A stretch of 64,000 nucleotides of DNA from Ignisphaera sp. (GTDB taxonomy: Archaea > Thermoproteota > Thermoprotei_A > Sulfolobales > Ignisphaeraceae), in assembly GCA_038892955.1 (NCBI GenBank), contig JAWASI010000001.1, positions 48,841 through 112,840 on the forward strand. The letters run 5' to 3'. The notes under the pieces are model-generated. The model searched no databases and was not told the DNA's origin. It was given only the letters and a program-made list of their open reading frames with translations. Positions 15,540-57,705 of the stretch are shown in pieces; positions within the stretch are counted from its first letter, which is position 1, and each line of letters starts with the position of its first letter. Made by a program: the position numbers and the translations under genes.

Positions 15540-15858
15540 GAGCCCGACCCGCAATAACCCGTCTTCTGTCTTAGACAACATTAGGCTTAGCGGGTTCCCA
15601 GCCCTCATACGGATTTCACTGGGCTGGATCCTTACTCTCCAGAGGACGGCCGTTTCACTGCTCCCGCAAACCTCGTCAACGGGTTCTGTCCCCTAGTTAC
15701 CTAGGGAACCTCACCGCATCATCCTCATCGGTTCGCGGACATGTCGTTTCTGTGCCGGAGCCCAGGTATTACCCTGGCCCCTTGCGGGGCTCTGGTTCCG
15801 TACAGAGGACGGTGTTTCCTCGGAGCATAAGCTCCGTAGTTGTCTGCGGGTCGGGCTC
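15540..15858 (-). ncRNA. rnpB: RNase P RNA (archaeal type A)
   Basis: P1 GAGCCCGACCCGCA/TGCGGGTCGGGCTC; CR-I GAGGAAAC; ACAGAAAC; GTGAAACGG; CR-V ACAGAAGACGGGTTA; GC-rich. Confidence 0.95.
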
Positions 15859-24384: not shown

Positions 24385-24485
24385 GCCGCCGTAGCTCAGC
24401 TGGGAGAGCGCCCGGCTGAAGAAAGTTTGAAGAAGCTGGGTCGTCAGATACCGGGAAGTCGGGGGTTCAAGTCCCCCCGGCGGCA
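24385..24485 (+). tRNA. tRNA-Phe(GAA) with 28-nt intron at 37/38 (24422-24449)
   Basis: GCCGCCG acceptor stem, CCCGG CT-GAA-G[intron]A CCGGG, TTCAAGT T-loop. Confidence 0.93.
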
Positions 24486-24501: not shown

Positions 24502-24608
24502 GCCGGGGTGGCCGAGAGGTCTAAGGCGGCGGGCTGCAGTGGTTTCCGGCGATCCGCTCAGCGAAGAGACCCGTTAATCCCCGGGTTCGAATCCCGGCCC
24601 CGGCTCCA
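24502..24608 (+). tRNA. tRNA-Cys(GCA) with ~29-nt anticodon-loop intron (24540-24568), encoded CCA
   Basis: GCCGGGG/CCCCGGC-T-CCA, GCGGG CT-GCA-G[intron]A CCCGT. Confidence 0.9.
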
Positions 24609-56010: not shown

Positions 56011-56571
56011 CTACTTGTCAATATCTGTGGAAGTCTTTAGCCTATAGCCTCTATTCATAAGCTTACGCATACACTTAGAGCAGAATAAATGCTTCTTTTT
56101 ATCTACTTCAAAAACAGAGTTGCTAAACTTCATAACACAGCCAGGGGTTAAGCAGTGGTTTAACCCCATTAAGTGGCCTAATTCATGTACAACTTCTTTT
56201 CTAACTCTTTGAACATAATTATTAGGATCTGTTTGCATTTGTAATCTATATGTAAATACTGCCGCTGATCTTACAGCAGGTATAGCAAGTCCGAAAACAA
56301 AATTTAAGTTAGGTACATAAGCATCAACACTAGTTAAAAGTACGACGTAACACCCTGGTTTCGAAAAAACCGAAGCTAAGTAAACAATTCCCTCAGCATA
56401 ATACTGTCTTCTACGTAAGTCGTATAGATGATCTGGTATATCTACAAGGTCCTCCACCATTTCAACATATACATCCTCAAAAATCTCATACAGTACTTCA
56501 CTACAAGATTTCAATAAACTGAGTTCTATCCCTCGAGTTCTGAGCATCAACACATTGAGTTGCACTATCAT
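56011..56571 (-). CDS. amzA: Archaemetzincin Zn metalloprotease
   Basis: LNFVFGLA, HELGHLMGLNHC...CVMKFS...FC..C. Confidence 0.9.
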   Translation of the reverse strand: MIVQLNVLMLRTRGIELSLLKSCSEVLYEIFEDVYVEMVEDLVDIPDHLYDLRRRQYYAEGIVYLASVFSKPGCYVVLLTSVDAYVPNLNFVFGLAIPAVRSAAVFTYRLQMQTDPNNYVQRVRKEVVHELGHLMGLNHCLTPGCVMKFSNSVFEVDKKKHLFCSKCMRKLMNRGYRLKTSTDIDK

Positions 56572-56630: not shown

Positions 56631-56684
56631 CTTCAGTAAGGGTTGAGTTCTTCATCTAATCCGAATTGGAGTCATTCATCACCC
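56631..56684 (-). ncRNA. C/D box sRNA
   Basis: GTGATGA-ATGACTCCAATT-CGGA-TTAG-ATGAAGA-ACTCAACCCTTA-CTGA; first guide complementary to the 16S motif AAUUGGAGUCA. Confidence 0.85.
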
Positions 56685-56744
56685 CAGAGCTCGATTTAAT
56701 ATATGCCTAAGTAAGCTTATTTACCTAGTAAAACATAAACATAA

Positions 56745-56826
56745 GTGATCCCGGTGGCCCGTGCAAAGGAGCCCCGTTGTACCGGGGCTATATGTGCACG
56801 GAGTGGGCCACCCCCGGCCCTTTCTT
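56745..56826 (+). ncRNA. Unassigned GC-rich structured RNA candidate
   Basis: Nested stems GGTGGCCC/GGGCCACC, GTGCA/TGCAC, AGCCCCG/CGGGGCT; TATA-like CTTATTTA upstream, TTTCTT downstream. Strand is inferred. Confidence 0.55.
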
Positions 56827-56832
56827 ATCTCT

Positions 56833-57705
56833 CTAAGATCTACATATAGTAATTATAGAGTTTTTAGAAACACCGAGAAGATCTTTTGCAGAACCTTTAT
56901 TAACAGCTAATTCTGCTAATCCGAAGCTATTTTCATATAGAACTAATGTACCTTTCGGTGCAATTGAGAATACTTCTTTAACTTCTCCAACGAATTGTTT
57001 ACCCTGAGTGTAGATATTTACTATTGAGCCTATGCTTAAATTAAGTAATTGCTTTAGTTGATCTAATTGCACAGATAATATTAGGTTACCAAATTTATCG
57101 ATGTGCACCACTTTGAGTTGTACACAATTGTCTACAATTTTCAGAAATCCTAAGCCTATGTCCAGTTCTGCTAAAGATTCTTTATCAACACTTCTACCTA
57201 AATCCTTGAAATTTGCACCACAAACTATGTGAGCTGCTACAGGCATGAATATGTCTCTACCGTGAAATGATTTAGAAATAGGTTTACGAAAGTAATATTC
57301 GTTCTCTAGCAACCTAACATCAATTATATTGTCGGTTTTTGCTGCAGTCACTAAAATGCCGTTATCAGGTCCTATGAATATATAATTCGTCGTAGCTATG
57401 GCTATAGCTCTTCTACTACTTCCAACTTCCGGATCTACTATTGCTACAAATATAGTGCCCTTGGGAAAGTATTTATATACCATGTACAGAACTAATGCAG
57501 CTGATTCTACATTAAAACTACTTATTGTATGAACTATATCCAGGATTTTTGCCTCAGGACATATACTTAAAGCCACAGCTTTCATAGCTGCAACATATGG
57601 GTCTTCTAAACCGAAATCTGTTAATATAGCTATGATACCACAAGGCTTTGGATACATTACATCTAAATTACTGCTTGATATATTAGGATATAACAATATG
57701 AACAC
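56833..57705 (-). CDS. SAM hydroxide adenosyltransferase / chlorinase-fluorinase family (DUF62)
   Basis: LTDFG, VDPEVGSSRR, GPDNG, FHGRDIF, IDKFGN. Likely start near MYPKP. Confidence 0.92.
   Translation of the reverse strand: MFILLYPNISSSNLDVMYPKPCGIIAILTDFGLEDPYVAAMKAVALSICPEAKILDIVHTISSFNVESAALVLYMVYKYFPKGTIFVAIVDPEVGSSRRAIAIATTNYIFIGPDNGILVTAAKTDNIIDVRLLENEYYFRKPISKSFHGRDIFMPVAAHIVCGANFKDLGRSVDKESLAELDIGLGFLKIVDNCVQLKVVHIDKFGNLILSVQLDQLKQLLNLSIGSIVNIYTQGKQFVGEVKEVFSIAPKGTLVLYENSFGLAELAVNKGSAKDLLGVSKNSIITICRS

Follow-up and report, generated by a model that had tools for sequence, protein, structure and literature searches.

Between positions 56745 and 56826 of the 64,000-nt stretch of Ignisphaera DNA analyzed here (the window, whose coordinates we use throughout), a GC-rich island that reads as a long interrupted hairpin stands within AT-rich DNA. 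What does this island encode? [quoted passage not shown]

All three stems that it drew (56753-56760/56805-56812, 56761-56765/56795-56799 and 56770-56776/56783-56789) are present in the sequence, as are the AAGG/AUAUG internal loop, the CCCGGCCC tail with a pyrimidine tract behind it, and the TATA-like box CTTATTTA upstream. Measured against shuffled sequences, the fold has z-scores of -2.8 and -2.9 on the two strands, and 1 of 200 shuffles folds as well as the native sequence. Comparative data, described below, show that the conserved part of the hairpin is a helix made of two segments, P1 and P2 (Table 1). This part of the drawing stood; the outermost stem, GGUGGCC/GGCCACC, turned out to be restricted to a few Ignisphaera genomes.

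Table 1. Features of the sRNA gene, in window coordinates.
Feature	Position	Strand	Basis or remark
TATA-like box CTTATTTA of the sRNA gene	56716-56723	+	Direct reading; aligned in relatives
Putative transcription start and short 5' leader GUGAU	56745-56749	+	TATA ~26 nt upstream; conserved G / G-U / R / A at -4 to -1
5' flank CCCGGUG	56750-56756	+	CCCCGGU nearly invariant in the family
P1, 5' strand; base of the putative guide hairpin	56757-56765	+	Pairs with 56795-56804, A56802 bulged; covariation
Internal loop, 5' side AAGG	56766-56769	+	A56766 is the nearly invariant A (column 17: A in 69 of 82 sequences); K-turn position in relatives
P2 (56770-56776/56783-56789) and apical loop UUGUAC	56770-56789	+	Standard pairs in 99% of cells; covariation
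Internal loop, 3' side AUAUG, with invariant R-U-G at 56792-56794	56790-56794	+	U54 and G55 in 82 of 82 sequences
P1, 3' strand	56795-56804	+	Covariation with 56757-56765
Putative 3' guide GGGCCACCCCCGGCC	56805-56819	+	Antisense to 23S rRNA: junction of helices 68 and 69, 5' strand of helix 69, and loop as far as the base preceding the U1917 equivalent
Local hairpin GGGCC/GGCCC with the UUUCUU tract behind it, overlapping the putative guide	56805-56826	+	Terminator-like site; same hairpin in family f3 and some f1 genomes

The element is present once in its own genome, and BLAST searches found homologs in 11 relatives. A covariance model (R1) that we built from eleven copies has exactly one full-length match in 96 of the 151 genomes sampled from the order, representing 12 of its 13 families, and a second model (R2) has a match in 59 of the 63 genomes of one family. 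With one copy per genome, a repeat or MITE is excluded. The sampled relatives presumably include Ignisphaera aggregans, Ignicoccus hospitalis, Staphylothermus hellenicus, Aeropyrum pernix, Hyperthermus butylicus and Pyrolobus fumarii. In the remaining family (f11), no homolog was found either with the model or with a pattern for the tail. An exact-pattern scan of genome contigs returned mostly high-GC bacteria, and was informative only for the motif in Ignisphaera MAGs.

Two sets of matches stand somewhat apart. Several genomes from two genera of family f10 (G289-G292, G317, G322, G325, G328, G329 and G116) have two model matches on different contigs, which may be paralogous H/ACA-like RNAs with a common hairpin. 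Beyond the order, where ~130 genomes were sampled, there is a single weak match (E = 0.0026), locus L227 in genome G180, which belongs to a different order. This locus has a P1/P2-like hairpin (CCCCG AGUCA CGGGG, ...AUGAAUGAAGG...), shares only CCGGC/GCCGG at its ends, and has neither the helix 69 guide described below nor a match to RF02803, the Rfam family of a Pyrobaculum H/ACA-like sRNA; it is probably a different H/ACA-like RNA.

The main helix is strongly supported by compensatory changes. We counted pairs in 82 distinct sequences and found changes on both sides in 8 of the 9 pairs of P1 (one position has G-C, C-G and A-U, for instance) and in 3 of the 5 pairs of P2; for P1 and P2 jointly, 12 of 17 pairs have such changes. 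The observed covariation was reached in 0 of 500 shuffles and in no slid control. Outside the helices, the invariant parts are CCCCGGU on the 5' side, the A that follows P1, R-U-G ahead of P1's 3' strand and, most of all, the 3' tail. The tail has the consensus GGGUCAC(U/C)CCCGGC, usually followed by another C, and reads GGGCCACCCCCGGCC in the window copy and GGGUCACUCCCGGCC in most families.

The gene is assigned to the plus strand because of a conserved TATA box upstream, the balance of G.U and A.C pairs, and a pyrimidine-rich tail. In the relatives from the same genus, a TTTATATAC/CTTATTTAC box on the plus strand aligns with CTTATTTA at a matching distance, and across 85 homologs the A+T content peaks 27-41 nt upstream of the start of the model; transcription would begin ~4-10 nt before the conserved CCCCGG. 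The helices contain 26 G.U pairs versus about one true A.C pair (a mis-assigned linker column accounts for nearly all of the A.C counts), a balance compatible only with the plus strand. The 83 trailers that we collected are G-poor and pyrimidine-rich. A search for terminator-like hairpins with a T tract found one, at 56805-56830, against 0.2 expected; the hairpin and UUUCUU tract in Table 1 are likely to be the 3' end and terminator, and it is from such signals that we infer the ends of the RNA. The public reads, all of which are available as contigs, include a single RNA run with a contig on part of the neighboring gene (57002-57100), and none over the element.

Both flanking genes are on the minus strand. 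The gene for a SAM hydroxide adenosyltransferase (DUF62; SAM hydrolase) is convergent with the element and ends at 56833, its stop codon 13 nt away; the gene for a peptidase M54 (archaemetzincin) starts at 56571. The short distance to the DUF62 gene, the retention of this arrangement in 10 Ignisphaera loci, and the terminator-like hairpin could all be accommodated if the element were a 3'-UTR or a bidirectional terminator of that gene. However, the element is preceded by a conserved promoter of its own on the opposite strand, its G.U pairs are incompatible with a minus-strand transcript, and its sequence and structure are kept in families where it has unrelated neighbors, such as genes for a PhoU-type protein, a helicase, ABC ATPases and a GPN-type ATPase. 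Because synteny with DUF62 is confined to the genus, this reading fails, and we give it hardly any probability. Conserved gene neighbors exist only within families, and they have no functional theme in common. From the conservation, structure, strand and promoter we conclude that the element is a real sRNA gene, GC-rich, single-copy and structured, that extends from ~56745 to ~56821 on the plus strand and specifies an RNA of ~75 nt.

On the minus strand at 56631-56686 we noticed a candidate C/D box sRNA, divergent from the sRNA gene, with GUGAUGA, an internal AGAUGAA and a terminal CUGA; its Rfam matches, to sR46 and sR5, are below threshold (24.7 bits, against a gathering score of 50; E = 7e-4). 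The 3' part of this candidate (CCCUUACUGA) also adjoins the sRNA gene in other Ignisphaera genomes, where the two are on the same strand. At the Sulfolobaceae loci L225, L226, L230, L231 and L269-L272, a C/D-box-like sequence (AUGAUGU...GGGACGU...CUGA) lies 25-45 nt downstream of the RNA, so in two distant families the gene appears to have a C/D sRNA gene as its neighbor.

Several other identities can be set aside. Taking the definition of a C/D RNA to be a C box (RUGAUGA) and a D box (CUGA) flanking guides of 10-12 nt, we agree with the original prediction that the element has no such boxes: it contains no CUGA, and the C/D matches that Rfam reports in this region belong to 56631-56686. Nor is there a cloverleaf, since neither ARAGORN nor the Rfam tRNA model finds a tRNA and there is no T-loop motif; a piece of a split or permuted tRNA, for which a T-loop, a D-arm and acceptor complementarity would be expected, was likewise rejected. 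It had also been noted that a terminal ACA is missing, and neither ACA nor ANA occurs at a fixed place among the 83 trailers. A piece of SRP RNA is excluded by the complete SRP RNA elsewhere in the genome (contig 6), and RNase P RNA is encoded within the window at 15544-15854. We rejected a small ORF starting at the conserved AUG/GUG, because its codons 2 and 3 follow the covariation of the helix, one relative has a 1-nt deletion, and the stop codons are not conserved. A canonical H/ACA pocket in the loop between P1 and P2 was dismissed because this loop is too variable between families for a conserved target. A resemblance of the element to the 5' and 3' ends of 16S rRNA (CCGGUUG and GGxUCAC) was dropped as an explanation, because complementarity to helix 69 accounts for the tail. 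The Rfam search of the window copy that had been suggested gave no match at the gathering score or at E <= 10, and literature searches with exact sequence strings gave no match.

What, then, is conserved in the tail? In other families the 5' leader (GUGA or GAGUGA) pairs with the tail, and this pairing shows compensatory changes at loci L211 and L162: GCAGACCC stands opposite GGGUCUGC in one genome, and a second genome has GCGGACUC opposite that same tail. Family f3 and the clade of the window copy have a local hairpin in the tail instead, GGGCC-ACCCCC-GGCCC. The sequence of the tail is therefore kept while its partners within the molecule change, which implies an external partner. When five complete genomes were searched for stretches complementary to the tail, a single site recurred, in the rRNA operon. 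It is the 23S segment GGCCGGGAGUAACUC. Compared with the helix 69 19-mer of E. coli, this segment covers the junction of helices 68 and 69 together with the 5' strand of helix 69 and the loop as far as position 1916.

A scan of the tail against rRNA and tRNA had been recommended along with the original prediction; the conserved target is helix 69 of 23S rRNA. The original prediction had itself pointed to complementarity with the 5' region of tRNA-Cys. This 9-nt match is real (24505-24513), but it is not kept in the relatives, whose tail is GGGUCACUCCC, and so the complementarity to tRNA is incidental. The tRNA concerned (GCCGGGGUGGCCGAG..., 24502-24605) is one of two intron-containing tRNA genes on the plus strand (the other is at 24385-24485) that are found by Rfam and missed by ARAGORN.

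We found no rRNA in the assembly to which the window belongs (56 contigs, 89% complete), in which the 16S rRNA gene is undetectable, so we read the target from a complete genome of the same genus, presumed to be Ignisphaera aggregans. Its 23S segment is GGCCGGGGGUAACUC; at the tail position that is U in other families, Ignisphaera has C. The window guide pairs with this segment at 13 of 15 positions, the exceptions being the adjacent C56808 and C56809, which face AA in the target. At two loci, L237 (genome G043) and L238 (genome G070), what looks like an rRNA intron interrupts the 23S gene right after CUCUUAA, ~8 nt past helix 69; the presumed Ignisphaera aggregans genome has no insertion at this position.

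We collected helix 69 sequences by a pattern scan from 77 genomes of the order and from additional genomes of one family, and in 52 genomes both guide and target are known. The 23S stretch has only one variable base (A or G), and this base co-varies with the opposing base of the tail (U or C). Thus GGGAG in 23S rRNA goes with CUCCC in the tail, and GGGGG goes with CCCCC or, in two genomes, with CUCCC through a G.U pair; none of the 52 genomes has an A.C clash. In 47 of the 52 genomes, swapping the target gives a less stable duplex than the genome's own. Tail insertions, UCUAC and UCUUAC, add U pairing with A residues of the target. Among shuffled tails, only 3% reach an equally good match to rRNA. 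Since there may have been only two or three independent A/G switches in 23S rRNA, we regard the covariation between guide and target as supportive but not overwhelming. One could suppose that the RNA is a conserved regulatory or protein-binding sRNA whose tail matches helix 69 by chance: 3% of shuffled tails match rRNA equally well, and the tail also takes part in intramolecular pairings that differ by lineage. We think this very unlikely, because the sole variable base of the target faces the main variable base of the tail and the two change together, the insertions in the tail lengthen the pairing, and there are independent published genetics for an RNA of the same design (sR148, see below).

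The position of the duplex suggests what the pairing is for. The paired segment, GGCCGGG(A/G)GUAACUC, stops one base before the uridine equivalent to E. coli U1917. Because the first guide base pairs just 5' of this uridine, the uridine would sit at the foot of P1. The first five bases of the guide (GGGUC, or GGGCC in the window copy) can in addition pair with GACCC (or GACUC) on the 5' side of a uridine six bases downstream. This geometry is that of a pseudouridylation guide with a 3' guide arm only. The 5' flank may be a vestige of the 5' strand of a lower stem together with a minimal 5' guide, its CCGG pairing with the CCGG at the 3' end.

We therefore consider it quite likely that the element encodes an atypical H/ACA-like pseudouridylation guide for helix 69 of 23S rRNA, the Ignisphaera ortholog of sR148 and a relative of Pyrobaculum sR205. 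In the mechanism that we propose, 56745-56821 would be transcribed as a stand-alone RNA consisting of P1, a K-turn-type internal loop, P2 and a single-stranded 3' guide. The guide would pair with 23S rRNA from the junction of helices 68 and 69 across the 5' strand and into the loop of helix 69; the U1917 equivalent, at the foot of the hairpin, would be presented to Cbf5-Nop10-Gar1, perhaps with L7Ae; and pairing of the first five guide bases with GACCC would bring in the second uridine as a further site. Binding by Cbf5 and the pseudouridines themselves we infer; a Cbf5-type TruB_N protein, Nop10 and Gar1 are encoded in the same genome. Among the three original readings it is the atypical guide RNA that is retained. 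The RNA is novel only in the sense that it was unannotated, its kind having already been published, and the 3'-UTR element is discarded.

The K-turn differs between copies. The 3-nt spacing to P2 is found in 70 of the 82 sequences and the U-G is invariant, and a full tandem G.A occurs in 12 of the 82. The window copy and several other Ignisphaera copies do not have the tandem G.A, which makes binding of L7Ae by the window copy uncertain. Genomes that we presume to be Saccharolobus contain a member of the family whose K-turn is canonical, with GUGA ahead of the distal stem and a 3-nt bulge followed by GAUGA behind it, and whose guide is GGGUCCCC.

The degenerate K-turn of the window copy bears on a further alternative, in which an sRNA antisense to rRNA would clamp the 5' strand of helix 69 during assembly of the large subunit, or block subunit joining, with no modification and no Cbf5. 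The length of the duplex, 13-15 bp (-26 to -33 kcal/mol), would suit such a clamp better than H/ACA pairing, for which the introduction of PMC11077068 gives 3-10 bp, and helix 69 is an inter-subunit bridge. We nevertheless consider a clamp quite unlikely, because the duplex stops one base short of a uridine whose pseudouridylation in S. islandicus is directed by an RNA of the same design, and because relatives of the window copy have canonical K-turns and resemble RF02803.

If the RNA is a pseudouridylation guide, the alternative pairings of its tail raise one more possibility, which we put forward tentatively and regard as doubtful. The leader-guide pairing, and the local hairpin in Ignisphaera, might be a conserved form of self-masking, the guide becoming exposed once the free 3' CCGGCC nucleates on nascent 23S rRNA, with copies that lack a canonical K-turn assembling without L7Ae. 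If true, this would be RNA-guided pseudouridylation in a gated, minimal form that has so far not been described.

To our knowledge, boxless H/ACA-like guides were known before 2024 only from Pyrobaculum, and function has been shown only in Sulfolobus islandicus. The window RNA does not represent a new class, and it reveals nothing new about mechanism. What is new is the near-universal presence of the RNA in the order and its covariation with the target. A putative guide for helix 69 is now found in almost every family of the order that includes Sulfolobus, Desulfurococcus, Ignicoccus, Pyrodictium, Aeropyrum and Ignisphaera, and the guide-target covariation gives independent support for the pairing. 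The analysis also fills a gap in annotation, as no Rfam model reaches these genes and our alignment could seed one.

Among known systems, we took the class of atypical or H/ACA-like guides to comprise Pyrobaculum sR203-210 and S. islandicus sR109, sR136, sR148 and sR563. Like the members of this class, the window RNA has a single hairpin without a stable lower stem, the only traces being the 4-bp CCGG/CCGG vestige or a lineage-specific leader pairing, and a guide beside the base of the hairpin that can pair with rRNA up to a pseudouridine site (in 52 genomes, at a site that is modified in S. islandicus). Canonical H/ACA guides are a more distant comparison. One of them, sR-h45 of Haloferax volcanii, has its sites in helix 69. 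It guides three pseudouridylations of 23S rRNA (PMC7075261). Such guides share with the window RNA the 23S rRNA as target and, presumably, the enzyme system. In contrast, the lower stem, two-sided pocket and ACA at 14-16 nt from the target that PMC11077068 describes for canonical guides are all absent from the window RNA.

Closer to the window RNA is Pyrobaculum H/ACA-like sRNA 205 (PyrR205, RF02803). In a relaxed Rfam scan this model matched exactly at the loci of the family in six genomes, with a best score of 34.3 bits against a gathering cut-off of 35.6; none of the 151 genomes has a match at or above the cut-off, and the window copy has none at E <= 10. The consensus of PyrR205 has ...AUGAGC... 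on the 3' side of its hairpin, its 3' part, CGGGUUACCCCGGCC, is nearly identical to the tail of our family, and it too is classed as an H/ACA-like guide without a lower stem. It differs in ending with an AUA box, whereas ANA or ACA is not conserved in the window family.

The closest counterpart in design is sR148, one of the Cbf5-bound RNAs isolated from Sulfolobus islandicus by Li, Wu and Ye in 2024 (PMC11077068). It is described there as an atypical H/ACA RNA without a lower stem or ACA and with a single 3' guide, which targets U2060 (E. coli 1917) and U2066 of 23S rRNA, the second substrate duplex being 6 bp long; both pseudouridines are lost when sR148 is deleted. The same source states that a lower stem, where one forms, has to be unwound for the substrate to bind, and by analogy this requirement would apply to the leader pairing and the local hairpin that bury the guide in our family. 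The window RNA differs from sR148 in having a guide of 15 nt instead of ~8, a degenerate K-turn, and a local terminator-like hairpin that overlaps the guide. It resembles sR148 in its one hairpin, in the absence of a lower stem and ACA, in its single 3' guide, in its helix 69 target, and in a second site 6 nt downstream with a duplex of ~6 bp. We take the family member with guide GGGUCCCC in the presumed Saccharolobus genomes to be sR148, a match made by design and genome, and the proposed orthology between sR148 and the window RNA rests on their matching design together with this homolog.
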